Shown here piece by piece: positions 11,310 to 60,508 of a stretch of 64,000 nucleotides of DNA (positions are counted from its first letter, which is position 1; every line of letters begins with the position of its first letter). The translations under genes and the position numbers were made by a program. Source of the stretch: Paludibacteraceae bacterium (lineage in GTDB: Bacteria > Bacteroidota > Bacteroidia > Bacteroidales > Paludibacteraceae); assembly GCA_905235225.1 (NCBI GenBank), contig CAJOKE010000014.1, forward strand, positions 4,175 through 68,174, given 5' to 3'. Below the pieces are notes generated by a model. That model made no database searches. It saw nothing but the letters and a program-made list of their open reading frames with translations, and was not told where the DNA came from.

Positions 11310-11363
11310 TACGAGCGACTTACGGGACGGATACGGGACGGTTACGAGAAATTACGAGATTTT
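11310..11363. repeat. Five TACG-initiated units with spacing 11,11,11,10 bp
   Basis: tacgagcgact / tacgggacgga / tacgggacggt / tacgagaaat / tacgagatttt. They are followed by CATATCT x3 (9-bp spacing) and a G/C-free run of about 30 nt. Confidence 0.8.
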
Positions 11364-11423
11364 TCATATCTTACATATCTTTCATATTATATTATTTATA
11401 ATATAATATATATACAACATAGT

Positions 11424-11615
11424 TTAGTCAAAACAAAACCCCTTTCCATCTGCAGCAAGTAAATTCTGTTGGTGATAATTTGTCACCGACTCATTTCCCT
11501 CTTTCTTTAGACGCTCTTTCAGTTTGTTCTCTCGCGTGGGCAGACTTCGTGCCTTCGTGCGAATATATCGTTCCGGCGATAGTTGCTGTGTTGTGTTAGT
11601 CTTCTTTTTTGCCAT
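11424..11615 (-). CDS. 63-aa ORF, possibly the degraded 5' end of a larger gene
   Basis: MAKKKTNTTQQLSPERYIRTKARSLPT... resembles N-termini I recall from longer Bacteroides proteins. After about 27 aa the sequence becomes low-complexity and terminates. The coding status is uncertain. Confidence 0.25.
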   Translation of the reverse strand: MAKKKTNTTQQLSPERYIRTKARSLPTRENKLKERLKKEGNESVTNYHQQNLLAADGKGFCFD

Positions 11616-11858
11616 AATGGTAAGTTACCTTATTTATCATATCCCCATGCTCGGTTCATTTGTTTCTCATACTCCATAAAAGTAGACAAATCTTCGTTGA
11701 CCTGAACTAAATCAAATCCATTGTATCCCATTTCTTCTCCCAAATCTATCACCTCAAATGCAAGTTTTTTAGTTTCTTTCTGTTTGTTGGTCTTTTATGC
11801 CGCAAAAGGGTAATTGCATTCCATAATATTTGCCCACTTCGTTTTACGTATGTCTGCA

Positions 11859-13094
11859 CTATTTTAAGCCAATAAAATTACTCAACGGCTCAATATGTGC
11901 TACTTGGGTATATTTTCTTTTATGCAAATCTATTTGCTGGTCATAATTTACCATCTTACTTACTTCAAAATGCAGAACAGCATAGTAAGGAGCATTCTCT
12001 GCACTAAATCCTAATTCGCGTAATGCTTCGGCGGTCCATATTTGGAAACCTTTCTTGGTCTGCTTGAATAGTTGCGGATTATCTCCATTGGTATGCAAAC
12101 AAATATAGCCCAAACGCTCAAAGCCTTGTTTCACAAGCAACGAACCCTTGCTGTCTCCTGCTCTCGTATATGTTATGCCTAATTGCATCGCCAGTTCGCG
12201 ATCTTTCTCGCGCATGTGATTCACCAAAACCGTTGCCTCTTGCCCGTTCTCGCGCATTTTGTCAAAGAGTTTCTTTTTCGCTTGCTCATCCTCTAACGCT
12301 TGTCTGCGCCGCAGAGATAAATCGACAAATGGTTTTTCTTGCTCTATTCCGATAAACTTGCGCCCAAGCAGATTAGCGGCAATACCTGTTGTGCTGGAAC
12401 CGCAGAACGGGTCAAGAATGGTGTCGCCCTCGTTGGTCGATGCAAGGATGATTCTATATAGCAGCCGGAGTGGTTTTTGCGTCGGGTGTTTGCCTTGCAG
12501 TTTCTCCCACGAACCAACCGCCGGAATACGCCATACATCGGTCATTTGCGTACCACCGTTCAACTGTTTCATGGTCTCGTAGTTGAACTTGTGCGTTTTC
12601 TTCTCCGACTTACGTGCCCAAATAATCAGTTCCGTAGAGAAGTTGAAATACTTGCACGACAAATTGGGGGGCGGGTCGGTTTTCTGCCAAGTGATTGTAT
12701 TGAGCACTTTGTACCCCAATTCTTGCAAGCAGCGCATTACAACATGGATATTATGGTGCGTACCACTAATCCAAATAGTGCCGTTCTCTTTCAGTTTTGG
12801 TCGGCATAGTTCCAACCAACGGCGGTTAAACTCGTAGATATATTCGGGTGTGCCGCCTTTGTCCCAATCGCCTTTGTCCACGCACACTTGTTTTCCACTA
12901 TGCACACTTATTCCACCGTTACTCAGGAAGTATGGCGGGTCGGCAAAAATAGCATCGATAGAGTTGTCCTCTATCTCTTTCAGCCGCTCCATGCAATCGC
13001 CTTGCAAGATGCGGAAGTCTGGGATTTTACATCCGTAATCAACATGTTTAAAGTGTTCCCATTCTAATGGTAACTCATCATTTTTAGTAATCAT
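11859..13094 (-). CDS. Beta-class N6-adenine DNA methyltransferase, CcrM/M.HinfI-like core plus an unassigned C-terminal extension of about 135 aa
   Basis: Motif IV IFADPPYF precedes motif I DPFCGSSTTG (beta order). HPTQKPLRLLYRII and GTIWISGTHHNIH match the CcrM family. The C-terminal 135 aa do not resemble the CcrM C-terminal domain. Confidence 0.85.
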   Translation of the reverse strand: MITKNDELPLEWEHFKHVDYGCKIPDFRILQGDCMERLKEIEDNSIDAIFADPPYFLSNGGISVHSGKQVCVDKGDWDKGGTPEYIYEFNRRWLELCRPKLKENGTIWISGTHHNIHVVMRCLQELGYKVLNTITWQKTDPPPNLSCKYFNFSTELIIWARKSEKKTHKFNYETMKQLNGGTQMTDVWRIPAVGSWEKLQGKHPTQKPLRLLYRIILASTNEGDTILDPFCGSSTTGIAANLLGRKFIGIEQEKPFVDLSLRRRQALEDEQAKKKLFDKMRENGQEATVLVNHMREKDRELAMQLGITYTRAGDSKGSLLVKQGFERLGYICLHTNGDNPQLFKQTKKGFQIWTAEALRELGFSAENAPYYAVLHFEVSKMVNYDQQIDLHKRKYTQVAHIEPLSNFIGLK

Positions 13095-13155
13095 TTTGTA
13101 GCGTTTGTTATGTTTGCTACCTTGTTACTAAAATTGACTTCCCGCGGGTACAACT

Positions 13156-13175
13156 GTGAGCAAAGATTTGCTCAC
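13156..13175. promoter_or_regulatory. Perfect 9+9 inverted repeat GTGAGCAAA-GA-TTTGCTCAC in the spacer upstream of the methylase (candidate operator or RNA hairpin)
   Basis: Read directly. The arms extend imperfectly to about 13123-13212, and a third half-site lies at 13205-13220. Confidence 0.6.
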
Positions 13176-13342
13176 GTTGTGGCCCTCGGAAAGCCAGTAA
13201 TAAGACAAATCTTGCTCACATGTACGCACAGTGAACGTTACGATTTGTTCTTCTTATTACTATAAATTTCCGAGGTTTCAACGTAAATAGAACAAATAGC
13301 AAACGCTAGTTAATATTAGTATGTCACCGCCGCTGCGGATTT

Positions 13343-14089
13343 TTATAGTATAAACTCTAAGTTTTGTTTCTCAAATTCTTGTTCGTATTGTTTACCAAGC
13401 GATTCATAACTTAAAAATGATACGCGCTTCTTCTCTGCCAATTGGTGAAATGCAGCATAACCCATTTTGCTAATAAACTCATTATGACGCTTCTCATCCG
13501 CCACGATAACCATACGAGCCGCAAAATCTTGCAAGTCATTGAATTTCAGCAAAGAGTTTTGAATGTCTGTAGAGTGCTCAATCTCAAAGAAAGAGTGAGG
13601 CATGTGACGGTCGTTAAACCAAATCACATCAATAGTGGAACTGCGCTTGACGAGTTTAGGAAAAGAGTATTCGGGGAGTACCTGTATTGTACGCAGGTTG
13701 CCTAATTCTGCTTGATTGAGGAACTGCTTATGCTTATCTTGGTCCGGCACAAAAGTGTCTAAATGACGCATTTTGCCCATTTCTAACAATAGACCTTGAT
13801 AGTAAGCGTGATTGAATGTCTTTATTGCATCGGAATCTTGGTTGTGTTCGTTTTGCACAAGAATACCGTTTCCTTCCAACTCCTGACGATGAGATTCAAG
13901 CGCATAGAGACCAGGCTTGATTTTATATATATCGGCATTCTGCTGAACTATGCGGCGAATACTTGCAAATGGCGTTTTGGTATGCCATTTGCAATCTTCT
14001 ATTTTGAAAATATTTTGATTGATTTGGTTAAGAGTAGCAATGCCACCCAACTTCTCAATCGTCTCTATTACCGCTTGGTTCTGGGTCAT
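13343..14089 (-). CDS. Winged-helix plus nuclease-like protein (candidate restriction endonuclease or effector)
   Basis: N-terminus IETIEKLGGIATLNQINQNI...PFASIRRIVQ...IYKIKPGLYAL is wHTH-like. The C-terminus TIDVIWF-x13-FFEIEHSTDIQNSLLK resembles a D...E.E..K nuclease core. The start overlaps the GNAT stop (ATGA). The function is inferred and was not searched. Confidence 0.45.
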   Translation of the reverse strand: MTQNQAVIETIEKLGGIATLNQINQNIFKIEDCKWHTKTPFASIRRIVQQNADIYKIKPGLYALESHRQELEGNGILVQNEHNQDSDAIKTFNHAYYQGLLLEMGKMRHLDTFVPDQDKHKQFLNQAELGNLRTIQVLPEYSFPKLVKRSSTIDVIWFNDRHMPHSFFEIEHSTDIQNSLLKFNDLQDFAARMVIVADEKRHNEFISKMGYAAFHQLAEKKRVSFLSYESLGKQYEQEFEKQNLEFIL

Positions 14090-14640
14090 AATCCTTGCTC
14101 TATATGCTCCTTGAAAGGCTTTAAATCAAAATACATCAACCGCGTTTTATCAAGCGTATCTAACATCGTAAAATATTGGAATCTGTTCTTCTCGTAGAAT
14201 GGAGTGGCGTTAGCATATGCATCTACAGTCAAGAAACGACAACCTATTTTAGGTTCAGTTACCATAAAATACTTTACGTATTCCAGAATTTGAGACCCCA
14301 ATCCCTCACGTTCATATGACTTAGCCACAGCTAAACGAGCAATTTTTGCGGATGGATAACTACGGCGGCGTTTGCTGTTTGGGATGAGACGGTTGATACG
14401 ATTCCAGATACCCTTTTCTCTAGGGTCGTAAGCCACTTTATCATTTAACAAACTGAAATATGCTACAGTCTGCTGTTTTTCTTTGTCAATAAAAAGATAC
14501 GTTACTGCCATTAAATCAGCGGAATAGTTCTTTGCATCTTCCATCAAAAAACTATTCAAGTCTTCATCTCCTGAGACAAAAGGCAATAACGGCATGTCCT
14601 GTGTAAGCTGGACAAATTCAAAATCGGACAGGTGCATCAT
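14086..14640 (-). CDS. GNAT-family acetyltransferase of the TacT/KacT toxin type
   Basis: 184 aa. F.SGDEDLNSFL near the N-terminus, acetyl-CoA loop IARLAVAKSYEREGLGSQIL (R..G.G), FYEKNRFQYF. Small upstream partner ORF with an ATGA overlap. Confidence 0.7.
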   Translation of the reverse strand: MMHLSDFEFVQLTQDMPLLPFVSGDEDLNSFLMEDAKNYSADLMAVTYLFIDKEKQQTVAYFSLLNDKVAYDPREKGIWNRINRLIPNSKRRRSYPSAKIARLAVAKSYEREGLGSQILEYVKYFMVTEPKIGCRFLTVDAYANATPFYEKNRFQYFTMLDTLDKTRLMYFDLKPFKEHIEQGL

Positions 14641-14795
14641 AGAACATTTGGATATTTAGCTTTTACCGCTAAATAAATAGCCTGAGCACGTTGCACCTCC
14701 TCTGCTGTAACCGGTTGCGGGTGTTCTACAGCGTATGCAAATCTCCTTGCGTCCTCACCGTACAATGTTGGTGTTTCTTTAATAGGTCTGGCCAT
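14637..14795 (-). CDS. 52-aa ORF, candidate antitoxin of the GNAT toxin (not in the ORF track)
   Basis: Translated by hand: MARPIKETPTLYGEDARRFAYAVEHPQPVTAEEVQRAQAIYLAVKAKYPNVL. Its TGA overlaps the GNAT ATG (ATGA). A TAnnTTTG box lies 29 nt upstream. Confidence 0.5.
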   Translation of the reverse strand: MARPIKETPTLYGEDARRFAYAVEHPQPVTAEEVQRAQAIYLAVKAKYPNVL

Positions 14796-14823
14796 AATTA
14801 TTGTAGTTTAATTAAATCCGCTG

Positions 14824-14831
14824 CAAAGATA
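14824..14831 (-). promoter_or_regulatory. -7 promoter box (TATCTTTG) for the 52aa/GNAT/nuclease-like cassette
   Basis: Plus-strand CAAAGATA in an AT-rich 190-bp spacer. Confidence 0.5.
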
Positions 14832-14986
14832 CAATTTTAAATTCATATAAGCAAATATTTTTGTAATAAAATATTTTTTATGTGCGTTTTTAAGCGATTT
14901 GAATACTATTTAGAATATCATTGAGTCTTTTTCGAGAAATCAGCTCTGGTTATAATATCCATTACATGCTTGTTATTTAAAACTTG

Positions 14987-15169
14987 CTACAAAGTTGTCT
15001 TGAAAACGCTTACTGCCAAGAGCATTGCTCCTCCGCCGACAAACGGCTCAATGTAAGTAACATTCTCCCATGTATCAAAGTCAGCTGGAAGCAGTGCTTC
15101 GAGTTGGTCAATGAGTTGTGTTTTGCCGCCAACCCATTTGATAAATGGTTTCGCTTTCATTGTTTTCAT
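14987..15169 (-). pseudogene. 5' remnant of a Dam-type (D12 class) DNA adenine methyltransferase gene
   Basis: The 60-aa ORF carries [13 protein letters not shown] and [11 protein letters not shown], the N-terminal motifs of Dam-family enzymes of about 280 aa. It then stops, and no DPPY region follows. Confidence 0.7.
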
Positions 15170-15276
15170 TGTATATTGTTTTTCTTTTGTTTACTCATTT
15201 GTGCGATTCCGAAGCCACGGAGGGATTATTTTTTGCTTTCTTTTCTCGGTCATCGCTCGGTCTTCGGTCGGTGGGA

Positions 15277-16290
15277 TCAGTTCTTCTGGTTTATCAGGTT
15301 CACCACCACTTTGACCATGGTGTCTTTTTCTTCTGTACGGCTCTCTGCAATCATGAGGGTTAGCGCGACAAGGGTGTTATCTGCTATACGCTTGGTGCCA
15401 TCCTCGCGGTATAGAATGCCGTTATTGTTTAGGAACCACAGGAACAACGTAGCCGCGATGCGTTTGTTTCCGTCTGAAAAGGAGTGGTTCTTGGTCACTA
15501 AATACAGCAACATGGCAGCTTTCTCCTCCACACTCGGATATAAATCCGTTCCTCCAAAGGTCTGATAAATCTGACCTATACTGCTTTTGAACGAATCATC
15601 TTTCTCATTTCCAAACAAAGTGCTACCGCCGAACTTCTCACGCAGCGCAGCAATCGTCTGCATGGCATTCTCATATGTGGCATGGAAGCGTTCTTCAGGC
15701 GTAGTCTCTTTGACGGTCAGCCGCTCGTAATCATAGTTATCGAGCGTGTCCAGCGCATACGTATAATCCAAAACGACATCGAAAATAGCTTGCGTCTCAT
15801 CTGCGCTCTCCACCGCTTTGCTTTGTACCGTCCGTCCAACAATCTGAACCAACTGCCGCAAATCCGACAACTGCTCACGACGAATCTTTTCGTTGATGGC
15901 ATAGCCTTTGATGAGGTAGTCTTTGAGAATTCTGTTTGCCCATTGACGGAATTGCACACCACGTTGAGACTTTACACGATAACCAACGGAGATGATTACA
16001 TCGAGGTTGTATAGCGTTGTTTCTACTTCTTGTGAGAAGTTATCTCTACGACCATATTTCTTGGGTAGTGCAAATTTTGCACATACCAAGGATTCGTTCA
16101 ATTCTCCTTCGGAGAAAATATTGCGTATGTGCCGTCCTATAACTGTTCTATCGCGGTCAAAGAGTTGAGCCATCTGGTCTTGCGTCAGCCACACGGTTTC
16201 GTTCTCCATGCGCACATCGAGTTGTACCGTGTTGTCTTCCGCACGATAGATGATTATCTCGCCTCTATTTTCAATAGGTTTCTCGTTCAT
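15277..16290 (-). CDS. RhuM-family N-terminal domain fused to a Fic/Doc domain
   Basis: Trimmed to MNEKPIENRGEIIIYRAEDN. The RhuM-type part is TVWLTQDQMAQLF...NLDVIISVGYRVKSQRGVQFRQWA. The C-terminal part has the Fic/Doc motif HSFSDGNKRIAA. Confidence 0.8.
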   Translation of the reverse strand: MNEKPIENRGEIIIYRAEDNTVQLDVRMENETVWLTQDQMAQLFDRDRTVIGRHIRNIFSEGELNESLVCAKFALPKKYGRRDNFSQEVETTLYNLDVIISVGYRVKSQRGVQFRQWANRILKDYLIKGYAINEKIRREQLSDLRQLVQIVGRTVQSKAVESADETQAIFDVVLDYTYALDTLDNYDYERLTVKETTPEERFHATYENAMQTIAALREKFGGSTLFGNEKDDSFKSSIGQIYQTFGGTDLYPSVEEKAAMLLYLVTKNHSFSDGNKRIAATLFLWFLNNNGILYREDGTKRIADNTLVALTLMIAESRTEEKDTMVKVVVNLINQKN

Positions 16291-16343
16291 ATTGTTAAAG
16301 TTGCATTTATTGCAAAGGCAACATATATTTGCAAAATGCACCG

Positions 16344-16351
16344 CAAAGGTA
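16344..16351 (-). promoter_or_regulatory. -7 promoter box (TACCTTTG) for the RhuM-Fic gene
   Basis: Plus-strand ccgCAAAGGTAc, 54 nt upstream of the ATG at 16290. Confidence 0.55.
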
Positions 16352-16436
16352 CAATAAAAAGTTGAAAGTACAAAATAGAAGGTACAAAAAGTATGATTAC
16401 GATACACTTTTTTTTGCATATGTGCAATTTTTGCAG

Positions 16437-16444
16437 TACCTTTG
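16437..16444 (+). promoter_or_regulatory. -7 promoter box (TACCTTTG) for the 16491 lipoprotein operon
   Basis: gcagTACCTTTGcgg, 47 nt upstream of the ATG. Confidence 0.55.
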
Positions 16445-16490
16445 CGGCGGAAAAGTATGTTATACTACAAGACACAAAGTATAAGGATAC

Positions 16491-19030: not shown

Positions 19031-19042
19031 GCGTAGCCGGGA

Positions 19043-23209: not shown

Positions 23210-23217
23210 CAAAGGTA
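23210..23217 (-). promoter_or_regulatory. -7 promoter box (TACCTTTG) for the paralogue operon
   Basis: Plus-strand ctgCAAAGGTActgc, about 50 nt upstream of the ATG at 23159. Confidence 0.55.
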
Positions 23218-23318
23218 CTGCTTTTTTTCGGGATACACAATACCAAAAAATGGGGATTTTGCATTTTTTATGTTTTTTCCCGGGTATATGTTCTATATTA
23301 TTGATGACGGCAACATTT

Positions 23319-23380
23319 CTGAAATATCCTAATAATATCCTAATAATAACCTAATAACAGCCTAATAAAATCCTAATATG
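23319..23380 (+). repeat. 62-bp module made of five 11-bp CCTAATA units (copy 1 of 2)
   Basis: ctgaaatatCCTAATAatatCCTAATAataaCCTAATAacagCCTAATAaaatCCTAATAtg. CCT recurs at offsets 10, 21, 32, 43 and 54. It is 61/62 identical to 37667-37728. Confidence 0.9.
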
Positions 23381-23498
23381 GAGAGGGAAGATTGGGAAAA
23401 GCGGAGAAAGCGAAAGGAGCGGAAAAGAGGCAAGATAGAAGCAAGGATGAGGAGGAAAAGAAGCGGGAAAAAGGTAGGATAGAAGCAAGGAAGAGGAT

Positions 23499-23560
23499 GG
23501 AAATAGCAGGGAAATAGTCGGAAAATAGCCGGTAAAAAGTCGAAAAAAAGTCGAAAAAAG
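23499..23560 (+). repeat. 11-bp periodic purine-rich array (AAATAGnnGGn / AAAAAGTCGAA units)
   Basis: AAATAG at 23501, 23512 and 23523. AGTCG at 23516, 23538 and 23549. It sits within a purine-biased tract of about 185 nt (23381-23566). Confidence 0.8.
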
Positions 23561-23614: not shown

Positions 23615-23622
23615 TACATTTG
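23615..23622 (+). promoter_or_regulatory. -7 promoter box (TACATTTG) for the lptD-like gene
   Basis: gtagTACATTTGcggg. It lies inside the tracked ORF, which argues that the first 43 codons of that ORF are not coding. Confidence 0.5.
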
Positions 23623-23689
23623 CGGGCTTAATTTGCGTAAGTGTGCGCTTATCGGAACGGAACATATTATTAAGAACGCGAAGAGCGAA

Positions 23690-23743
23690 AAGCGGAGTGG
23701 CGTGGCGGAGAGCGGAAAGCGGTGCAGCGTGGCGGAGAGCAGT
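23690..23743 (+). repeat. Tandem 27-bp duplication in the 5' end of the lptD-like gene
   Basis: AAGCGGAGTGGCGTGGCGGAGAGCGGA / AAGCGGTGCAGCGTGGCGGAGAGCAGT, encoding (K)SGVAWRRAE-SGAAWRRA. Confidence 0.8.
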
Positions 23744-37528: not shown

Positions 37529-37536
37529 CAAAGGTA
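37529..37536 (-). promoter_or_regulatory. -7 promoter box (TACCTTTG) for the DUF349 gene
   Basis: Plus-strand cgcgCAAAGGTAat, 41 nt upstream of the ATG at 37488. Confidence 0.55.
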
Positions 37537-37666
37537 ATACTTTTTTTTCAAGTATACAAAAATAATTTAGAAAAATCAGAAATTTTCCATAGAATGGTTA
37601 GCAAATGTATGAATGGAAAAAGAACAATTGTCAGTTTTGGCAGTGCATGTTATTATAGTTGTGTAT

Positions 37667-37728
37667 CTGAAATAACCTAATAATATCCTAATAATAACCT
37701 AATAACAGCCTAATAAAATCCTAATATG
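37667..37728 (+). repeat. 62-bp module of five 11-bp CCTAATA units (copy 2 of 2)
   Basis: Identical to 23319-23380 except position 9 (a versus t). Same orientation. Confidence 0.9.
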
Positions 37729-37826
37729 AAGTATGGAATTTGAGTAAAAAAAAAGACAAAAAAAGAAAAAAAGTAGAATGTACGTCAAATTATGGGAAGC
37801 GATTTGTGTATATCGTTTATTTTTTG

Positions 37827-37834
37827 TACCTTTG
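37827..37834 (+). promoter_or_regulatory. -7 promoter box (TACCTTTG) for prfB
   Basis: tttttgTACCTTTGcgcgg, 131 nt upstream of the ATG at 37966. Phased A-tracts lie at 37745-37775 just upstream. Confidence 0.55.
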
Positions 37835-37854
37835 CGCGGAAAAACAGTCATATA

Positions 37855-37953
37855 CAAATACAGATTAGAGACAATAATATACAAATACAGATTGGAGATA
37901 GTCATATTCAAATACAGATTGGAGACAGGTAAAAACAAATACAGATTGAAATT
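37855..37953 (+). repeat. Four direct repeats, period exactly 27 nt, in the predicted prfB leader
   Basis: The CAAATACAGATT(A/G)GAGA core starts at 37855, 37882, 37909 and 37936. The last copy is truncated (CAAATACAGATTGAAATT). Confidence 0.85.
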
Positions 37954-37965
37954 ATAATATACCTT

Positions 37966-39072
37966 ATGATAACAATAGAGCAACTAAAAGACATTCAGAC
38001 ACGCGCAGAGAAGTTGAAACAATACCTTGCGATAGACGAGAAACGCATCCAATTAGAGGAGGAGGAACTACATACGCAAGCTCCCGGTTTTTGGGATGAT
38101 GCCAAGGCAGCAGAAGCCCAAATGCGCAAAGTCAAAAACCTCAAACGATGGATAGAAGGTTATGAGGGAGTACGTTCCGCAACCGACGAGTTGCAGCTTG
38201 CTTTCGATTTCTACAAGGACGAACTGGTCACCGAAGAAGAGGTGGATGCCGCCTATGCAAAAGCACTCCAAGAAGTAGAAGACCTTGAGATGAAGAATAT
38301 GCTATCGCATGAAGAGGATGCGATGCCTGCAGTATTGAAAATAGTCAGCGGTGCCGGCGGAACGGAGGCGCAAGACTGGGCGGAGCAACTGATGCGAATG
38401 TACCAACGCTATTGCGAAAAGCACAACTACAAAGTAACAATAGCAAACTTGCAAGAAGGTGACGAAGCAGGAATCAAGACCGTGACATTCAATATCGAAG
38501 GTGATATGGCATACGGTTATCTGAAGTCCGAAAACGGCGTCCACCGCTTGGTTCGTGTGAGTCCGTACAATGCCCAAGGCAAACGTATGACATCCTTTGC
38601 CAGTGTATTTGTCGTACCACTGATTGACGATTCGATAGATATAGAGGTCAACCCTGCGGGAATTTCGTGGGATACGTTCCGCTCATCCGGAGCCGGCGGT
38701 CAGAATGTAAACAAAGTGGAGTCCGGTGTCCGTTTGCACTATAAGTTTATCAACTGTCTGACGGGTCAACCAGATGAAATCGTGATTGAGAATACCGAAA
38801 CACGCGACCAGCCGAAGAACCGCGAAAACGCCCTGCGTCATTTGCGCAGCCAACTCTATGAACTGGAATTAGAGAAGCGTCGCCAAGCAGCCGCCAAAGT
38901 AGAAGCAGGCAAGAAAAAGATCGAATGGGGTTCACAGATTAGGTCCTATGTGTTTGATGACCGCCGTGTGAAAGACCATCGCACGAACTATCAGACATCC
39001 AATGTGAATGCGGTTATGGATGGTGACATAGACGCCTTTATCAAAGCATACCTAATGGAGTTTCCCGATTAA
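37966..39072 (+). CDS. prfB: Peptide chain release factor 2, encoded in a single uninterrupted frame
   Basis: FWDDAKAAEAQMRK, SGAGGTEAQDWA, GVHRLVRVSPYN, SGAGGQNVNK (GGQ), WGSQIRSYV. There is no in-frame stop at the usual frameshift position. Confidence 0.9.
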   Translation: MITIEQLKDIQTRAEKLKQYLAIDEKRIQLEEEELHTQAPGFWDDAKAAEAQMRKVKNLKRWIEGYEGVRSATDELQLAFDFYKDELVTEEEVDAAYAKALQEVEDLEMKNMLSHEEDAMPAVLKIVSGAGGTEAQDWAEQLMRMYQRYCEKHNYKVTIANLQEGDEAGIKTVTFNIEGDMAYGYLKSENGVHRLVRVSPYNAQGKRMTSFASVFVVPLIDDSIDIEVNPAGISWDTFRSSGAGGQNVNKVESGVRLHYKFINCLTGQPDEIVIENTETRDQPKNRENALRHLRSQLYELELEKRRQAAAKVEAGKKKIEWGSQIRSYVFDDRRVKDHRTNYQTSNVNAVMDGDIDAFIKAYLMEFPD

Positions 39073-47364: not shown

Positions 47365-47365
47365 G

Positions 47366-50063: not shown

Positions 50064-50105
50064 CATTACTATGTGACACCTTTGAGACTATAAAAATGTA
50101 TTGTT

Positions 50106-50138
50106 TATCTATCGTATATCTATCGTATATCTATCGTA
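50106..50138 (+). repeat. Three perfect tandem 11-mers TATCTATCGTA
   Basis: Read directly. They are followed by TTAAGG x2 (10-bp spacing) and GATTG(G) x3 (11 and 9 bp) up to about 50200. Confidence 0.9.
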
Positions 50139-50266
50139 AATGTTTCGTTATAGGTTAAGGAAATTTAAGGCACGATTGGCAAAAGATTGGAAAGATTGTC
50201 GGAGTGATAATTGAAAAAAAAAAGAGAAAAGTGAAGATTTTATTTGTGTATATCAAAAAATAGCAG

Positions 50267-50274
50267 TACCTTTG
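50267..50274 (+). promoter_or_regulatory. -7 promoter box (TACCTTTG) for rho
   Basis: agcagTACCTTTGcggcg, 76 nt upstream of the ATG at 50350. Confidence 0.55.
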
Positions 50275-50349
50275 CGGCGAATTTGAGGATTCCCTCATGT
50301 TTTTTCCATTAATTCAATTCTTATATTTCCGACAATTTAGAGAAAATAT

Positions 50350-52194: not shown

Positions 52195-52631
52195 AAATCG
52201 CAATTATCAATGGTCCTAACCTTAATTTGACGGGGAAACGCACCCCGCAAATTTATGGTCATAAGACGATGGAAGAGATGATGGTCGAAATCCAGCGTCA
52301 ATGGATTGGCACACATTTTGTTTATTTTCAATCGAATCACGAAGGGGCGTTAATAGATTATATCCAAAAAGTGGCATTGGCCGATGACTATGACGGAATA
52401 ATTATCAATGCCGGCGGATACGCCCATACAAGTGTCGCTTTGCGCGATGCGCTTGACTTCGCGAAGGAGCAAAACATAACGGTGGTGAATATACACCTAT
52501 CTAATATACGCGCAAGAGAGGATTTCCGTCAACGCGATTTATTGGAAGATGTCTGCACACACACCATAATCGGACATGGTATAGATGGATACAAAGAAGC
52601 TGTGGAGTTTATCACTCGTGTTGCTCGTTAG
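52191..52631 (+). CDS. aroQ: Type II 3-dehydroquinate dehydratase
   Basis: [38 protein letters not shown]. Confidence 0.9.
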
Positions 52632-55134: not shown

Positions 55135-55141
55135 CATCTTC

Positions 55142-55852
55142 ATGAGGAAAAGTATTTACATACTACTTTTATTGCTTTGCGCAAACATGCTGCCTGCGCA
55201 GAATAATCCGTATATAGATGACAAACTCCTGCATTTTGGGTTCTCGCTCGGAATGAACTTCATGAGTTTCGGCGTAACCGACTCCGAAGAACTTATTAAC
55301 GGCGAACTCTACCATGCACGTGTCAGCGGACTTATGCCCGGATTCTCTGTCGGTTTCATAACGGACCTGCGCATGTCGCGGCATTTGAACCTGCGCTTAT
55401 GCCCCGGACTCAGTTTCTCACAGAGAACCCTGACATATAAAACCGAATCCGGCACCCCCGTTCACAGCAAATCCGGCAAACACAAGGATAAAATTGATAT
55501 CCTCAGTATTCCCATTGCTATACCTTTATATATAAAGTGGTCTGCGGAACGCGAAAAGAACTTCCGCCCCTACCTTATCGGCGGCGGTGGCGTGGAATTC
55601 AATGTCTATCGGGATTCGGAAAGACCCGTCATGCTCAAGAGCTTCGATTACTTTGTCGAAGTCGGGGTCGGGTGTGACTTCTACTTTGAATGGTTCAAGT
55701 TCTGCCCGCAGATAACATACAAAATCGGCTTCGCGGACGTGCTTACCCATGTGGACGAAAATATCTATCTTACTCCCGATGAGGCGTTTTATTCTGCGGC
55801 GTTGCGCAAACTCACCTCACGAATGCTATGTATCACGTTTAACTTTGAATAA
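55142..55852 (+). CDS. porT: PorT/SprT-type outer-membrane beta-barrel protein (T9SS-associated)
   Basis: Trimmed to MRKSIYILLLLLCANMLPAQ. LHFGFSLGMNFMSF, PGFSVGFITDLR and YLIGGGGVEF follow the PorT-family pattern. About 236 aa. Confidence 0.6.
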   Translation: MRKSIYILLLLLCANMLPAQNNPYIDDKLLHFGFSLGMNFMSFGVTDSEELINGELYHARVSGLMPGFSVGFITDLRMSRHLNLRLCPGLSFSQRTLTYKTESGTPVHSKSGKHKDKIDILSIPIAIPLYIKWSAEREKNFRPYLIGGGGVEFNVYRDSERPVMLKSFDYFVEVGVGCDFYFEWFKFCPQITYKIGFADVLTHVDENIYLTPDEAFYSAALRKLTSRMLCITFNFE

Positions 55853-57309
55853 TGAGATTCCGCCTACTTGTCATATTGGCACTGATTGTCACGTTATGCG
55901 CTTGCCGGGAAGAACGTATCAGCGATGACCCGTCCCTGCGACTGACCTTCTCTACGGATACGCTTTCATTTGATACGGTCTTTACCTCAATGGGCAGTGC
56001 CACTCTCCGTTTCACCGTCTATAACTATAACGCCAATGCCGTGCTTATCAACAGGATTTGGCAAGACTCCGGCAACGAGTTCAAAACCAATATCGACGGT
56101 GAAAACGACCTCTCACGCGCTATTGACCGCCAACTGAACGGCGGAGATAGTCTCATCGTGTTTGTCAAGGTTTTCATTGACCCTACAAAACAGAATGCCG
56201 CCGTCTTGGTGGAAGACAACCTCCATTTCGCACTCAACGGAAATGTACAAACCGTTCACTTGGAAGCATTCGGACAAGACGTCCGCCTCTTCAAAACGCC
56301 GAAGCGTCTTACAGTGCTCAACGAAATGGAGTTTAACGCCGACAAACCGTATCTTATCTATGACACCTTGGCGGTAAGGAACAAAACCACTTTCAAGGCG
56401 GGGGCTAAATTGTATTTCCACAACGACGCGGTTTTATTAGCCTACGGCGATGTGGAAGCGCAAGGCACTCTGACGGAGCCGGTTATGCTTCGCGGCGACC
56501 GCATTGACAACCTCTATGATTCGGTTTCCTATGCCTATGTGGCAGGAATGTGGGGCGGCTTGTATCTCATGGACGAACAATCCGCTCCGCAAAAGACCTA
56601 TAAACTGGATTACATGGACATCACATCGGCAAATGTCGGTCTCTTCTGTGTTTCTGACAAATCGGCCGGTCTGCCAAAGATGACATTGACCAACAGCCGG
56701 ATCCACAATCACGCCATTTACGGCTTGGTACTGCAGCATATTGATGCAACTGTCGCTAACTGCGAAATCAGCAATGCCGCCGCCTATTGTGTCTATCTTT
56801 CCGGCGGAAAGCAACGGTTTGTCCACTCCACGATCGCCTCGTTCTTCAACTCCACCAACGTGCGTATCCAATCCACTCCAAGGGAAGATGTGGCGGCGGT
56901 CTATATCAATAATGTCAGCAAAAACCAGATTCCCACACACGCTACTTTCATCAACTCTATTGTGACCGGCGTCAGGCGTAATAATCTTCTGCTCGCTACT
57001 CCGCTCCCGCGTTTCTACGAGGACACTTTTGCATGCAATTACCTCAAAGCGGACACCGTCTTCATTCCGGCGGCTATAGGCAATATCTATTGGCAGGAAG
57101 ATGACACCACTGCCCTGTTCCGCAACACCTATTATAAATATAAGGAATATTCCTACTATGATTTCCGCTTGGATTCGCTCTCACCCGCACGCGCTATCGC
57201 GGATTCGGTGACCGCTCTTTCCTACCCCTTTGACCGCTATGGACGCCCGCGTATCCGCTTCCAAGAGGGCGATACCATTTATCCGGACGCCGGATGCTAC
57301 CAGTATTAA
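55852..57309 (+). CDS. Lipoprotein of unknown function (possibly beta-helix fold)
   Basis: Lipobox LIVTLCAC. 485 aa. Start overlaps the porT stop. No catalytic motif recognised. Confidence 0.45.
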   Translation: MRFRLLVILALIVTLCACREERISDDPSLRLTFSTDTLSFDTVFTSMGSATLRFTVYNYNANAVLINRIWQDSGNEFKTNIDGENDLSRAIDRQLNGGDSLIVFVKVFIDPTKQNAAVLVEDNLHFALNGNVQTVHLEAFGQDVRLFKTPKRLTVLNEMEFNADKPYLIYDTLAVRNKTTFKAGAKLYFHNDAVLLAYGDVEAQGTLTEPVMLRGDRIDNLYDSVSYAYVAGMWGGLYLMDEQSAPQKTYKLDYMDITSANVGLFCVSDKSAGLPKMTLTNSRIHNHAIYGLVLQHIDATVANCEISNAAAYCVYLSGGKQRFVHSTIASFFNSTNVRIQSTPREDVAAVYINNVSKNQIPTHATFINSIVTGVRRNNLLLATPLPRFYEDTFACNYLKADTVFIPAAIGNIYWQEDDTTALFRNTYYKYKEYSYYDFRLDSLSPARAIADSVTALSYPFDRYGRPRIRFQEGDTIYPDAGCYQY

Positions 57310-57335
57310 TCGCCGTTTTGCTGCATAATTAGTAT

Positions 57336-57362
57336 AAAAAGTGCGTATATCCGCACTTTTTT
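57336..57362 (+). terminator. Intrinsic terminator after the 55852-57309 gene
   Basis: aaaaaGTGCGtatatcCGCACtttttt. Confidence 0.65.
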
Positions 57363-57386
57363 CTTGTATATGTGAAAAAAAAAACG

Positions 57387-57394
57387 TACCTTTG
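57387..57394 (+). promoter_or_regulatory. -7 promoter box (TACCTTTG) upstream of the lipase remnant
   Basis: aacgTACCTTTGccgcg, 21 nt upstream of the ATG at 57415. Confidence 0.5.
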
Positions 57395-57414
57395 CCGCGA
57401 AAAAATGAAACACC

Positions 57415-58395
57415 ATGAAACAAACAATGTCATACAAGCATCTCTTTTTTCTCCTTCCTCTGCTTGTAATGGGGCTGTTTTCCGCATGCTCGGCCAATAA
57501 TAAAATTCAGCAGGGCGACCAGCGCGGAGATGTACTCAAGGTTCTTGAAATCAAACATCTTTCCCTGCCCGAAATAAAGAAATACACAGGCGATTCGGTT
57601 AAAAGCGAATACCTGCAATTCGGCGTCACGTGCTATAAACTGACCTATAATAGCGTCTATGAAGGCGAACCGATTGCTACTACTGCCTTATTGCTTTTGC
57701 CCGATGACACTACCATCACACGCCGCCTCTGCGTTTATCTCCACGGGACTAATATGCCGATTGACCCTATGACGGCGCAGCAGCAGATGCCTTCCAACTA
57801 TTTCAATAACCGCCAGACCGGCGGAGAGGTCGCTACCTGCGCATTTCCGTTGGCGGCTAACGGCTTCTCAGTAATCATGCCCGACTACATCGGCTATGGG
57901 GAAACGAAAGACAAGGAGCATCCCTTTGTCTATTATCCCGAATTGCATTTCGCCAATATTGATGCCCTGCGCGCGATGTGCAGATACCTCGGACTCACCG
58001 GCAAACAGGATGTCTTTATCGGCGGTTTCAGCCTGGGTGGCGGTGCCGCTCTCAGTCTCCACTATTATATTCAGAACAACTACGCCTCCGAATTTAATGT
58101 CATCAGCAGCTGCTGCCTTTCCGGACCGTATAACTATGCCGGACAGCTTGAGGGCGTGTTGCGTGAAAACGCAACCATTCCCGCAACGCTCATTTCTTGG
58201 TCCGCCTATGTACTCAACCGATTCGATGTACACCGCAACCCCGACCAGATTTTCTCTTTCACCGTCACAGACCAACTCTCGGCTATCACCAACTTCTACG
58301 GCGGCATTTGGGACATCTTCAGACCATATTTCATTCAGGGCGTGCTTAGTGGAGAGGACACCGAATGGATTGCCGCCGGAGAACGGAACTCCTTC
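57415..58395 (+). pseudogene. 5' portion (about 325 codons) of a secreted alpha/beta-hydrolase (lipase-like) gene
   Basis: Lipoprotein-like signal LVMGLFSAC and nucleophile elbow GGFSLGGG. The sequence is protein-like up to ...EDTEWIAAGERNSFHKG. After that the frame continues as compositionally odd read-through (SRWLTSPETPRLIIPHSSCTNAV...). Confidence 0.55.
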
Positions 58396-58397
58396 CA

Positions 58398-58760
58398 CAA
58401 AGGATCGCGGTGGTTAACATCGCCGGAAACTCCGCGGCTAATAATACCGCACTCATCATGTACGAACGCCGTGGATATTTCAACATCAGCTACGACTTCG
58501 CACTTGGAAAAGACAAAAACGTCATTCTTTCACCGCATCTCCTTATGTATCTTGGACAACATACTGTCAGTGCCGACTTCGGGGCTGAAATCAATTTGTG
58601 GAAATATGCACATGCCGGTTATACGTTCCGTATTCAGGAGATGCGGCATATCGTTACTGCCGGAATGGAATACAAAGGCTTTGTCCTTAACCTCGCTTAC
58701 GAAGGTGCCGCACAAACCCGGAAGCAACGAATGCAGGTTTCGCTTGGATACAAATTCTGA
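58398..58760 (+). pseudogene. 3' portion (about 120 codons) of a PorP/SprF-family T9SS membrane protein gene
   Basis: The frame of ORF 58365-58760, from ...RIAVVNIAGNS, reads YFNISYDFALGKDKNVILSPHLLMYLGQHTVSADFGAEINLWKYAHAGYTFRIQE...LNLAYEG...MQVSLGYKF. This is the C-terminal barrel pattern of PorP/SprF. No N-terminal half or signal peptide is present. Confidence 0.45.
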
Positions 58761-58788
58761 ATATTGAACCCTAATAGTACATGAAAAT

Positions 58789-60348
58789 ATGAAAAAATAC
58801 GCCTTCTTTCTCCTTGTTCTCGCATTAACCGCTTGCCAACAGGCAAAGCAACCGATTGTTATATTCTTTGAAAACGATGTCCACTGCGCTATTGATGATT
58901 ACGCCAAGTTCAGCGCGTTGCGCAATCAGGCGAAGCAGCATACCCCTTATGTCGCTGTGGTCAGTGCCGGTGACTTTGCACAGGGTGCCGCTATCGGAAG
59001 CCTCAGTCAGGGTGAATCGATCATAAAGGTCATGAACGCCGTCAAATACGATGCAACTACCGTTGGCAACCATGAGTTTGACTACGGCATTCCCCAGCAG
59101 CAGCACCTCATGCGCGAACTCAATGCCAAGGTACTTTGCTGTAACTTCAGCGACCTCGACGGCAATCTGCTCTACAAGCCCTACAGCCTCCACCGCTTCG
59201 GGCAAGTGACTGTCGCATTCGTGGGAGCAGCTACGCCGACTACCTTCAACAGCTCCACCCCAACCTACTTTGAGGATGGGAAGGGCAACTTCATCTATTC
59301 CTTCCACGCCGATGACTCCTTCGCGCTTATACAGGCGGCAACAAATGACGCGCGGAAACACGGGGCGGACTATGTCATTGTTCTTTCGCACTTGGGCGAT
59401 GATACGGCACTGGACAATAGTGTCGATATGATTAGAACCACTGTCGGCATTGACGCCGTCTTGGACGGACACCAGCACCATATCCTCAACCTCAAGGTGC
59501 CTAACGCCCAAGGCGATTCCGTCATCTTGGCTTCTACCGGCACACAGTTCCAGCGGTTCGGCAAACTCACTATCGACACGGCGGGACTCATTTCCGTCGA
59601 ACTCATTGAGAACACACCCGATATGGAGACTGACCCGAAAGTCGAGCACGTCATCGCACAGATTAAGGCTGATATGCAATCCATGACATCCAAAGTGGTC
59701 GGATACTCCCAAGTCCCGCTCACCATGCTCAAAAACGGCAAACGCGAGGTTAGACGCGGCGAAACCAATCTCACCGATTTTCTCACCGACGCTTTCCGGG
59801 ACGCTACGGGTGCAGACATCGGTGTTATGAACGGGGGCGGAGTGCGAAACCAGTTGCCCGCTGGCGAAATTACGTATGGCGATATCTATTCGGTTATTCC
59901 GTTCAATAACACCATGCGCATGCTCCAATGTACCGGACAGCAACTCTTGGATGCCTTGGAGGTCGGGGTCGCACACGCACCAGATGAGAGCGGGGACTTT
60001 ATTCATGTCAGCGGAATGAGATACACATATACCACTGCTATCCCGTCATCCGTCATGCTTGACCATAACCAGCTCTTTATAGGTATCGGTAAAACGCGCC
60101 GTATCATCTCTGCAGAGATTGAACGCAACGGACAATGGATCCCCGTTGATCCGAATGCCACATACACTATTGGCGGACAGAGCTATATCCTTACCTGCAA
60201 AGGGGCTGCCGGAGCTTTCCAGTACATGAAGGAGATTGATTGCAACCATGTCGGAGATGTCGAAGCCGTTCTTAACTATCTCGACAAATTGGGCACTGTC
60301 TCTGCAGAGCAATACGCCGAACCACAACTCCGCGAACAAGCACTCTAA
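58789..60348 (+). CDS. Bifunctional metallophosphatase / 5'-nucleotidase lipoprotein (UshA-like)
   Basis: Lipobox LVLALTAC. Metallophosphatase motifs DVHC, GDFAQG, GNHEFDYG, SHLG, GHQHH. C-terminal 5'-nucleotidase domain. Confidence 0.85.
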   Translation: MKKYAFFLLVLALTACQQAKQPIVIFFENDVHCAIDDYAKFSALRNQAKQHTPYVAVVSAGDFAQGAAIGSLSQGESIIKVMNAVKYDATTVGNHEFDYGIPQQQHLMRELNAKVLCCNFSDLDGNLLYKPYSLHRFGQVTVAFVGAATPTTFNSSTPTYFEDGKGNFIYSFHADDSFALIQAATNDARKHGADYVIVLSHLGDDTALDNSVDMIRTTVGIDAVLDGHQHHILNLKVPNAQGDSVILASTGTQFQRFGKLTIDTAGLISVELIENTPDMETDPKVEHVIAQIKADMQSMTSKVVGYSQVPLTMLKNGKREVRRGETNLTDFLTDAFRDATGADIGVMNGGGVRNQLPAGEITYGDIYSVIPFNNTMRMLQCTGQQLLDALEVGVAHAPDESGDFIHVSGMRYTYTTAIPSSVMLDHNQLFIGIGKTRRIISAEIERNGQWIPVDPNATYTIGGQSYILTCKGAAGAFQYMKEIDCNHVGDVEAVLNYLDKLGTVSAEQYAEPQLREQAL

Positions 60349-60431
60349 TTACACGCCAAAAAAAATTACCCGAAAAAACCATCTAATTACCCGACATGCC
60401 AAATTCATAACTCGCTGATAATCAGCACCCC

Positions 60432-60508
60432 TTATCGCACTATTATCGCACTATTATTGCAGTATTATTGCAGTATTATTGCAGTATTATTGCAGTATTG
60501 TTGCAATA
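60432..60508 (+). repeat. Seven tandem 11-mers (TTATCGCACTA x2, TTATTGCAGTA x4, TTGTTGCAATA x1)
   Basis: Read directly, with exact 11-bp register over 77 bp. Flanked by the palindrome GCTGATaATCAGC (about 60413-60425) and TCAGCC-N18-GGCTGA (about 60509-60538). Confidence 0.9.

Follow-up and report, generated by a model that had tools for sequence, protein, structure and literature searches.

The window analysed here, a stretch of 64,000 nucleotides to which all coordinates refer, carries short tandem arrays in five intergenic regions, and these raise the question of whether arrays with a period of about one helical turn are structural parts of the promoters beside them or something else. The first-pass annotation took the former position, proposing as a rule that arrays of different words but identical phase lie 50–300 bp upstream of TAnnTTTG promoters, and it knew of no description of them; our literature search likewise found none of such 11-bp promoter-upstream arrays. 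The best reading is that the arrays are copies of fast-changing intergenic repeat families, rather than fixed structural promoter parts. Specifically, we hold with moderate confidence that they are the cores of small (~55–130 bp) multi-copy elements, lineage-specific to rumen Paludibacteraceae and related Bacteroidales, and thus bacterial minisatellites with an 11-bp unit.

Arrays of the window

Using TRF to call arrays, we found that all five regions contain tandem arrays whose unit is 11 bp or a higher-order 22/44-bp form of this (Table 1). The coordinates and spacings given earlier check out, as do the distances to the TAnnTTTG boxes and the names of the flanking gene products (DsbD, LptD_2, RF2, Rho and LRR_5); one correction is that the dsbD-side box at 11206 is without a proper -33 element. 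Ten arrays in the window score at least 50, six of them of period 11, 22 or 44. The 11310 region is weak by TRF, its regularity lying in TACG starts at 11310, 11321, 11332, 11343 and 11353 (spacings 11, 11, 11 and 10), and its unit resembles CGGATACGGCAC, a tail motif of the TTATTGCAGTA family. The left flank GCTGATAATCAGC of the 60432 array is conserved in other TTATYGCASTA copies, where loose ends read AACTCGTTGATAATCAGTACCA, and, in a small sample, a TTCAG...CTGAA tail similar to its right-flank hairpin follows arrays of this family elsewhere and, in L132 and L139, arrays built from other words.

Table 1. Array features of the window; depth is metagenome contig depth relative to background.
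Position	Strand	Feature	TRF call	Promoter context	Depth
11310..11363	.	Degenerate 11-bp array TACGAGCGACT TACGGGACGGA TACGGGACGGT TACGAGAAAT TACGAGA, dsbD side	11321-11346, 2.4 copies, score 45	97 bp upstream of weak -7 box 11206-11213 (- strand, dsbD)	6-30x in X1, X2, X6
23318..23389	+	72-bp dispersed element, copy 1: TCTGAAATA + 5 AAnnnCCTAAT units + ATGGAG	AATATCCTAAT x5.1 at 23323-23378, score 84	Flanked by divergent promoters 23210-23217 (- strand) and 23615-23622 (+ strand)	~200x; contig breaks here
23413..23503	+	Purine-rich higher-order repeat, 44-bp unit x2, 22-bp sub-period	Score 133		Single copy
23499..23560	+	Purine/A-tract 11-bp array, GGAAATAGCAG grading into AAAAAGTCGAA	23499-23559, 11 bp x2.8 and x4.4	55 bp upstream of lptD -7 box	
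37666..37738	+	72-bp CCTAAT element, copy 2	AATAACCTAAT x5.1 at 37671-37726	Between DUF349 promoter (37529-37536, - strand) and prfB promoter (37827-37834, + strand)	~250x
37745..37775	+	Three phased A-tracts (37746-37772), period ~10			
50094..50148	+	TATCTATCGTA x3 exact (50106-50138) + degenerate flanking units AAATGTATTGT, AAATGTTTCGT		129 bp upstream of rho -7 box (50267-50274)	75-250x
50150..50240	+	Purine-rich tract with TTGGCAAAAGA, TTGGAAAGA, TTGTCGGAG; putative short relic of the TTGGAAGGTGG array that trails the same word array in L133			
60414..60426	.	Palindrome GCTGATAATCAGC, left flank of TTATYGCASTA element			
60432..60510	+	Array TTATCGCACTA x2, TTATTGCAGTA x4-5, TTGTTGCAATA x1	TTATTGCAGTA x7.2	208 bp upstream of LRR_5 gene -7 box (60718-60725)	~100x, rising from ~60400
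60510..60539	.	Right-flank hairpin TCAGCCA-N16-TGGCTGA, CGAATACGGCA loop			

A shared period beyond chance

Chance matching or artefacts of assembly are scarcely credible as the source of the arrays. When the window was shuffled 50 times with a second-order Markov model, arrays scoring at least 50 arose 0.14 times per shuffle and never with period 11, and the arrays recur in assemblies made independently, from several samples and with several assemblers. Only the 11321 array, taken alone, scores like a chance match, about 1.6 period-11 matches of score at least 30 being expected in each shuffle. The autocorrelation of the intergenic sequence peaks at lags 11, 22 and 33 (0.317, 0.300 and 0.304, against ~0.28), and masking the arrays returns lags 11 and 22 to background (0.282 and 0.274) and lowers lag 33 only partly, to 0.285. 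In 85 kb of related contigs, selected independently of these arrays, period 11 accounts for 11 of 24 intergenic arrays and for 1 of 12 in ORFs (p = 0.001), the 11.3 kb on the flanks of the window hold one further array, also of period 11, and 7 and 11 are the dominant periods among Bacteroidales loci. That the arrays share a period close to one helical turn is thus real, non-random and a property of the lineage beyond this window. Neutral slippage by itself leaves the preference for 11 over 9, 10, 12 or 13 unexplained.

Word families and their dispersal

The claim that different words share nothing but their phase stands as to the period and fails as to the words. The arrays at 23318 and 37666 are one 72-bp element present twice, with its unit variants in the same order, and are not independent; moreover, all the words belong to shared multi-copy families, which in this genome comprise AAnnnCCTAAT, TATCTATCGTR, TTATYGCASTA, TACGGGACGGA, TCCCGTTCGCA and purine-rich GGAA/TTGGAA types. 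Array words recur in other Paludibacteraceae contigs, across loci and species, and therefore their sequence identity matters or is inherited, so that the argument from a common phase alone falls. TATCTATCGTR, for example, lies beside other genes in other genomes (x6.5 in L133, x12.9 in L134 and x4.3 in L137), and the AAnnn spacer occurs in 16 of 35 Bacteroidales matches to CCTAAT-N5 x3, compared with 3 of 76 in other taxa (p = 3e-7). RF2 relatives at 92% identity carry the name Paludibacteraceae.

In rumen metagenomes the arrays are depth spikes of 6-250x at which assemblies break, the neighbouring spacer DNA being single copy; per-genome copy number was estimated only from such summed contig depth, which pools related species. 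The 60432 array is carried by 42 X1 contigs, many of them at the depth of the genome itself. Whole elements have spread to numerous intergenic sites; like the 72-bp element of the window, one of 92 bp (L030/L114) and a composite one of ~140 bp (L042/L065) show such dispersal inside other MAGs. Within the CCTAAT family an 8-bp core, CCTAATAA, is combined with three variable spacer positions, an arrangement kept within arrays and across species, and variant units have been amplified in blocks into 22/44-bp higher-order repeats, some blocks being perfectly identical, spacer positions included. It counts against the minisatellite reading that neither target-site duplications nor terminal inverted repeats were clear at the array elements, and that rho alleles with and without the array differ diffusely, with no clean insertion.

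Turnover between strains and species

The suggested comparison of array copy number between strains did reveal differences, arrays having lengthened or shortened by units of 11 or 22 bp or by a whole segment. The rho-locus array is missing in L002, X2 and X6, where the promoter is identical; L007 has one extra unit; and X6 carries both a 22-bp deletion at 23427, in the 23413 repeat, and an 11-bp insertion, CAGAAAATAGC, at 23518, in the 23499 array. Copy number varies among L138–L141 despite one shared RF2 protein. The CCTAAT element of the prfB locus is kept in X2 and X6 and missing in a species with a 93% identical RF2, and the DUF349-prfB spacer is 161 bp and array-free in L137 compared with 465 bp here. 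To judge from these sequence comparisons, in which the promoters at rho and prfB persist, the arrays are dispensable at orthologous promoters. Against the minisatellite reading, strains ~97% identical still carry the arrays at lptD, prfB and LRR, and arrays are unchanged between near-identical strains and so not hypermutable.

Position and shape

The proposed positional rule is not supported. Every array of the window does precede a -7 box. Of 50 arrays of period 11 or 22, 44% had a promoter pointing away from them at no more than 300 bp, compared with 31% of random intergenic segments; 14% of the 50 sit downstream of a promoter, and their distribution over divergent, tandem and convergent spacers tracks the amount of intergenic DNA. 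Elsewhere, arrays also occupy 5' leaders and convergent spacers. One word family lies at about -47, -130, -450 or +30 (in the 5' leader) depending on the genome, and the element shared by L030 and L114 has opposite orientations to the nearest promoter. There is no functional coherence among the flanking genes (dsbD, lptD, prfB, rho and the LRR gene).

The structural role fared no better. In two bend models, whose ranking of the words is only indicative, the per-unit bend of the actual words falls at percentiles 0–96 (median ~50) of random AT-rich 11-mers and of their own shuffles, with TATCTATCGTA, TACGGGACGGA and TTATCGCACTA predicted to be nearly straight. Strong predicted curvature is confined to the A-tract/purine arrays, at 23499-23560 (99.8–99.9th percentile) and 37745-37775 (99.5–99.9th).

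Weighing the explanations

One could suppose that shape alone counts, any word repeated once per turn giving curvature, a supercoil-sensitive element or alpha-CTD docking upstream of promoters. The period of ~11 bp is the dominant periodicity of bacterial genomes and has been linked to negative supercoiling (PMC3372288), which would agree with this, as would the two strongly curved predictions, the slight upstream excess and the location of the window's own arrays. We nevertheless consider it unlikely, as the words bend no better than random or shuffled 11-mers, their sharing between loci and species is not expected if only shape counted, some arrays lie in 5' leaders and convergent spacers, and related strains do without them. 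The arrays may instead be operator or architectural sites for putative sequence-specific proteins that would bind once per turn on one DNA face and modulate adjacent promoters, each word family serving a different protein. Direct repeats spaced by 11 bp are the classic geometry of Pho boxes, ArcA sites, SARP heptamers (11-bp period) and the ParR-bound 11-bp iterons of R1 parC, and repeat lengths of 7 and 11, the dominant periods noted above, are both known for ribbon-helix-helix operators. Suitable binders would be winged-helix regulators of the OmpR/PhoB/SARP type, ribbon-helix-helix proteins (such as ParR or omega) or some abundant protein of the nucleoid. The words are conserved over many Paludibacteraceae MAGs, and the cross-species CCTAAT core with its variable 3-bp spacer looks like a protein-binding site, resembling those operators in its one-turn direct repeats of conserved core and variable spacer. 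However, the known sites touch the promoter or overlap with it and mark out a regulon or partition locus, whereas here positions vary, orientation is not fixed, the genes are unrelated and housekeeping, orthologous promoters lack arrays, and perfectly identical blocks point to recent amplification instead of site maintenance. Protein binding is thus a possible explanation, to which we give clearly less credence than to minisatellites.

It seems very improbable that the arrays act at the RNA level, where they would serve small RNAs or 5' leaders as repeated motifs for structure or protein binding. This would accord with L026, L092 and L046, where an array in the ATTAGG orientation starts ~20 nt past a consensus -7 box and before a gene of 137–158 aa, and with L134, whose arrays are placed after a promoter and ahead of a 1341-aa gene; a precedent is the TAACTGA heptamer, whose arrays sit just upstream of start codons (PMC4679880). 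Yet all arrays of the window precede promoters, array orientation to genes varies, depth in the metatranscriptome X20 is zero over the 60432 array and no more than a trace over the rest, and Rfam gave no match. For the minisatellites that we favour, arrays would change through slippage during replication or through in-register unequal exchange, and would accumulate in promoter-bearing spacers because only there may 50–250 extra bases be tolerated; the length of these spacers may then be due to them. The 11-bp unit could be inherited from founding elements, or could be favoured, either as whole-turn steps would hold flanking sites in rotational register or as they would suit a protein binding one face. 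Any effects on neighbouring promoters are likely to be secondary and locus-specific.

Relation to known repeats

The nearest known counterparts are BrickBuilt, described below, and the heptamer arrays of cyanobacteria and Beggiatoaceae. Cyanobacterial STRR heptamers are dispersed short tandem repeats. Related cases are arrays of the TAACTGA heptamer in Beggiatoaceae, Cyanobacteria and some Bacteroidetes (PMC4679880), and also bacterial long SSRs with 5–11 nt (as cited in PMC4060949). These share with the present arrays one short word in tandem at many intergenic loci and a patchy taxonomic distribution, but their units are mostly 7 nt, whereas here the unit is one helical turn with 22/44-bp higher-order structure; TAACTGA arrays, furthermore, lie within a few nt of start codons, and those described here are mostly far upstream of genes. 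The period is shared as well with curved DNA of phased A-tracts and with the ~11-bp periodicity of bacterial genomes, a signal concentrated in short non-coding segments near promoters (PMC3372288, PMC3940949), and the 23499-23560 and 37745-37775 arrays fit this class. That signal, however, is a statistical phasing of A/T runs, whereas here there are exact tandem copies of specific 11-mers, most of them not predicted to be strongly bent.

BrickBuilt, a minisatellite-containing MITE of Porphyromonas gingivalis with ~19 copies per genome, is always intergenic, 49–591 nt from genes, and has a 23-nt unit between short leader and tail flanks (PMC4596501). Compared by description, it is likewise found in Bacteroidales and has a spacer-less tandem unit as the core of a small element. 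In contrast to BrickBuilt, the flanks here are very short or absent, with no clear inverted-repeat ends, and several unrelated word families coexist. Its 23-nt unit is close to two helical turns, and the unit here is 11 nt.

Arrays with an 11-bp unit in the window

The window has a G+C content of 44% and promoters of the Bacteroidales type (TTTG ... TAnnTTTG), and its sequence is present in gut metagenomes of goat, sheep and bovine; relatives whose release factor 2 (RF2) is 92% identical carry the name Paludibacteraceae. Using Tandem Repeats Finder (TRF) and direct reading, we were able to recover every array listed in the first-pass annotation at its coordinates, and the names given there to the neighbouring genes, namely DsbD, LptD, RF2, Rho and LRR_5, were right. 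The units follow one another in tandem without spacers, and the TRF arrays have 0% indels and 86-100% matches.

Coordinates of tandem arrays in the window and in related contigs
Feature	Position	Neighbouring gene	Remark
TACG units	11310, 11321, 11332, 11343, 11353	dsbD
AATATCCTAAT x5.1	23323-23378	lptD
44-bp higher-order repeat	23413-23503	lptD	adjoins purine arrays
Purine arrays, 11-bp unit	23499-23559	lptD
AATAACCTAAT x5.1	37671-37726	prfB
Phased A-tracts	37746-37772	prfB	after AATAACCTAAT array
TATCTATCGTA x3	50106-50138	rho	exact
TTATTGCAGTA x7.2	60432-60510	LRR_5
TCCCGTTCGCA x3.1	L132 15853-15886		period 11, outside the window
Other-period arrays	L133 5224-5295, L133 9265-9347, L141 9368-9431		related contigs

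A common period of about 11 bp had also been proposed, and it goes beyond chance: in 50 Markov shuffles of the window, arrays with a TRF score of at least 50 arose at 0.14 per shuffle and none had period 11, as against 10 such arrays in the window itself, six of which have a period of 11, 22 or 44 and are all intergenic. The sole array individually within reach of chance is that at 11321 (score 45). Six spacers in the window measure 380 bp or more, and all but one of them contain arrays of the kind described. The autocorrelation of the window's intergenic DNA peaks at lags 11, 22 and 33; masking the arrays brings the lag-11 and lag-22 peaks to background and reduces lag 33 in part, and thus the signal comes from discrete arrays and not from diffuse phasing. 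The window's only strong array outside ORFs with a period other than 11/22/44 or 27/54 is a 19-bp repeat (x2.9, score 52) at 836-890, at the junction of two minus-strand genes (260-829 and 839-1858).

Preference for 11 bp characterises the lineage. Beyond the window, its ENA contig continues for 11.3 kb, and the one strong array there has period 11. In 85 kb of related contigs, reached via RF2 homologues or with the seeding arrays excluded, period 11 accounts for 11 of 24 intergenic arrays and for one of 12 in ORFs. Chance TRF hits have period 11 in 17% of cases, and measured against this share the intergenic excess has a binomial p of 0.001. A broader Bacteroidales sample has 7 and 11 as its dominant periods, and in the same comparison loci from outside the Bacteroidota have no preference for either; heptamer arrays are present in other Bacteroidales loci and absent from the window. 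Since related contigs also hold intergenic arrays of other periods (18 bp x4, 21 bp x3.9 and 8/32 bp x8, in L133 and L141), 11 bp is dominant, not exclusive, in the lineage.

Word families shared between loci

The first-pass annotation held that each locus had a different word, that is, unit sequence. This does not hold: words are shared, and a single 72-bp element is present twice, at 23318-23389 and at 37666-37738, with the same order of unit variants (..AATAT, AATAA, AACAG, AAAAT) and common short flanks (TCTGAAATA and ATGRAG), about ten bases being conserved per side. No target-site duplication was seen around either copy, and the intergenic regions of the window share no further 10-mers beyond this CCTAAT element and the promoter consensus.

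When rumen metagenome contigs were aligned to each array-bearing spacer and depth was compared, spikes occurred over the arrays alone (TATCTATCGTA, about 75-250x; TTATTGCAGTA, about 100x; CCTAAT, about 200x; TACGGGACGGA, 6-30x), and the DNA between array and promoter had single-copy depth. Metagenome contigs often terminate within arrays, and many that do so have the depth of the window's own genome (13-24x), which suggests that this genome has roughly ten or more loci for each word. The figure is an estimate: k-mer depth is inflated by identical units, and part of the signal comes from related species.

In a scan for CCTAAT-N5 x3, with one genome per species, at least 15 loci in MAGs of Bacteroidales, Paludibacteraceae among them, carried the AAnnnCCTAAT word, which among the matches listed accounts for 16 of 35 from Bacteroidales and 3 of 76 from other taxa (p = 3e-7). 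Within single MAGs an array is duplicated together with 60-90 bp of flank (L030/L114 and L042/L065). Searching translated arrays against predicted proteins led to contigs L133 and L134, in which the TATCTATCGTR word of the rho locus is repeated x6.5 and x12.9; L135 and L136 from the same search, being unrelated eukaryote-like microsatellite contigs, were left out. A third contig, L137, has a copy adjoining an unrelated gene. In L133 a long 11/44-bp array of TTGGAAGGTGG comes after the TATCTATCGTR array; at the window's rho locus, the purine tract behind the word array (TTGGCAAAAGA TTGGAAAGA ...) resembles, and may be, a short relic of this composite. What is found, then, is one short word repeated in tandem across many intergenic loci of a restricted lineage, with 48 of 50 arrays outside ORFs. 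Scans of viral contigs for three words gave 2, 0 and 0 matches, so the elements are not phage-borne; a TTATYGCASTA x3 scan of metagenome contigs gave a single match, to an irrelevant marine contig.

Purine-rich (G/A) tracts, on the coding strand of the downstream gene, follow three word arrays on the + promoter side (50150-50240, 23380-23560 and 37728-37775), and L133 has the same layout of word array and purine tract on a larger scale.

As to the ends of the elements, in the TTATYGCASTA family a palindrome on the left, GCTGATAATCAGC, is conserved, and on the right there is a hairpin, TCAGCCA-N16-TGGCTGA; in L132 and L139, arrays of other words are followed by a tail of similar type, TTCAG...CTGAA. 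These few cases are a lead towards a common element architecture. The flanks of the TATCTATCGTA family are not conserved, and the rho alleles and the two CCTAAT copies gave no sign of terminal inverted repeats, target duplications or clean empty sites.

Turnover between strains and relatives

Near-identical strains from independent samples, with identical flanking proteins, have identical arrays, which are therefore not hypermutable contingency loci. Phase variation through repeats of that kind finds no support, and no array lies between -33 and -7 elements. Differences are confined to strains at about 97% identity and to contigs L138-L141. At the rho locus, three relatives at about 97% identity (X2, X6 and L002) have a promoter and leader identical to those of the window and 149 unrelated bases in place of the 268 that hold the array and purine tract, and L007 has one additional degenerate unit. 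A clean insertion model for this array was discarded, since the alignment shows diffuse divergence of the alleles. At the lptD locus, at the same identity, the CCTAAT element is retained and the purine arrays have a 22-bp deletion and an 11-bp insertion. In a species whose RF2 is 93% identical, the spacer between DUF349 and prfB is array-free and 161 bp long; in an 86% species another gene lies 34 bp upstream of prfB. Among loci from the CCTAAT pattern scan there were no orthologues of the array-bearing spacers. In L138-L141, which encode one RF2 protein, the ACGCACAATAA and AACGGGACCAC arrays upstream of pheT vary in copy number or presence. Blocks of identical variant units and 22/44-bp higher-order repeats are a signature of in-register amplification.

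Relation to promoters

It had been claimed that the arrays lie 50-300 bp upstream of promoters. This stands for the window, where all lie 55-296 bp upstream of a -7 box (TAnnTTTG); elsewhere there is no fixed geometry, and the upstream position in the window is close to that expected of any sequence in a long promoter-bearing spacer. Among 50 period-11/22 arrays from the window and Bacteroidales loci, a consensus promoter reads away within 300 bp in 22 (44%), compared with 31% of random intergenic segments, and a promoter reads into the array in seven. Divergent, co-directional and convergent spacers hold 17, 19 and 4 arrays and make up 31, 54 and 15% of such DNA; the distribution over spacer types follows the amount of DNA. 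The TATCTATCGTR word is found at about -47 in L137, at -130 in the window, at -450 in L133 and within the 5' leader in L134, and the CCTAAT family occurs about 20 nt downstream of the -7 box in L026, L092 and L046, so that across genomes no fixed promoter geometry emerges. Nor is position conserved at orthologous promoters, the arrays being absent in relatives. Readings of single words as Fur boxes, DnaA boxes or transposon ends were set aside as resemblances with no support from context.

Interpretation

The most economical reading, to which we give about an even chance, takes the arrays to be dispersed minisatellite elements, specific to the lineage and built on an 11-bp unit. Whole elements have dispersed, arrays have gained and lost material in unit steps, and they are dispensable at orthologous promoters. 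Slippage or unequal exchange would account for changes in the arrays, and a route for the spread of elements to new sites would have to be supposed. The one-turn unit may be inherited from founder elements, may reflect a tolerance near promoters of whole-turn steps only, or may correspond to protein binding at every turn. The main rival, which we regard as possible but doubtful, is that these are binding arrays for putative proteins. The CCTAATAA 8-bp core with a 3-bp variable spacer, present within and between arrays, would fit such a role (for this core only the window arrays are unbiased, because the other loci were retrieved with a pattern requiring CCTAAT in three units), as would direct repeats at the 10-11-bp spacing of winged-helix and ribbon-helix-helix operators and the conservation of words across species. 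However, the genes concerned (dsbD, lptD, prfB, rho and an LRR gene) are unrelated and form no coherent regulon, the geometry varies from -47 to -450 and extends downstream of promoters, and there are recent identical units.

Another proposal, that the arrays are helical-phase landing pads for a new class of abundant sequence-specific proteins, or a templated repeat-adding product, either of them organising or insulating Paludibacteraceae intergenic DNA, seems to us unlikely; if true, the limited word vocabulary that spans species and the strict one-turn unit would be kept by selection and not by descent of selfish elements. The purely structural role favoured by the first-pass annotation is, in our view, decidedly unlikely. 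In the Bolshoy-Trifonov and De Santis dinucleotide wedge models the predicted curvature of the arrays is moderately raised, as for any in-phase repeat, a result which is indicative only. The predicted bend per unit lies at percentiles 0-96 relative to random AT-rich 11-mers and the words' own shuffles, with three words predicted to be nearly straight and an A6 control at percentile 97-98, and only the purine and A-tract segments at 23499-23560 and 37745-37775 are predicted to reach the 99.5-99.9th percentile of window curvature. With words unremarkable among random 11-mers in both models, and arrays absent at relatives' promoters, a role through curvature is not borne out. A role in RNA is very improbable. 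The RNA evidence is thin, comprising contigs from a single metatranscriptome, at a low share. Rfam has no family over the arrays. That the arrays are artefactual is scarcely credible.

By description, the closest known element is BrickBuilt of P. gingivalis, a spacer-less 23-nt minisatellite in an intergenic MITE of about 19 copies (PMC4596501). The elements here likewise have a core of spacer-less tandem units and are intergenic and multi-copy, the count per genome being an estimate; the unit is 11 nt, unlike that of BrickBuilt, and the signs of transposition of such a MITE (clean filled/empty sites, target-site duplication) were not found at the rho locus or around the two CCTAAT copies. As a phenomenon, the nearest parallels are dispersed heptamer arrays, for example those of TAACTGA in Beggiatoaceae, Cyanobacteria and some Bacteroidetes (PMC4679880), and the long SSRs of 5-11 nt recorded in surveys (PMC4060949), although the 11-nt unit differs from the STRR and TAACTGA heptamers. 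The periodicity of about 11 bp in bacterial genomes is a statistical A-tract signal (PMC3372288). The first-pass annotation was aware of no description of such arrays in Bacteroidales, and our literature search likewise found none of 11-mer array families.

If confirmed genome-wide, the arrays would be a clear case of bacterial satellite-like DNA, with a fixed one-helical-turn unit, higher-order repeats and a word library common to species, in an uncultured but abundant rumen lineage. They would bear on the expansion of non-coding DNA in compact genomes, raise the question of whether promoters gain tunable upstream DNA from such elements, and provide a concrete case in which to study why bacteria favour a periodicity of about 11 bp. 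The breaking of contigs at the arrays also accounts for the fragmented state of metagenome assemblies from these organisms.

Neighbouring features

A 27-bp unit x4 (ATATACAAATACAGATTGGAGACAATA, 37846-37962) nearly fills the 5' leader of prfB (-7 box at 37827, ATG at 37966). The repeat is single copy in metagenomes and shorter in X6 by about 28 nt (one unit). RF2 itself is encoded by one 368-aa ORF without a frameshift site. Another 27-bp repeat (x2.3, GCGGAGAGCGAAAAGCGGAGCAGCGTG) at 23678-23740 lies at the extreme 5' end of the LptD frame, just downstream of the promoter, and is either coding (a 9-aa repeat) or leader.

In the gene-free segment 14641-15276, downstream of a strong + strand promoter (-7 box 14856), 148 nt at 15018-15165 are 88.5% identical to a Paludibacteraceae MAG contig (L067 4532-4679), compared with 78.6% for the single coding match to that contig. 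Rfam gave no match for 15018-15165 even at E<=1, and none over 14641-15290; the segment may be a small RNA or small gene that has escaped annotation. The region 11440-11790 may be a strain-variable island, because it adjoins an N6/N4 DNA methyltransferase gene (11859-13094). Short multi-copy segments within it (about 11465-11514 and 11740-11789) have depth spikes in DNA runs and are present in the metatranscriptome, and X1, otherwise perfect for the window, has no contig across 11540-11714.
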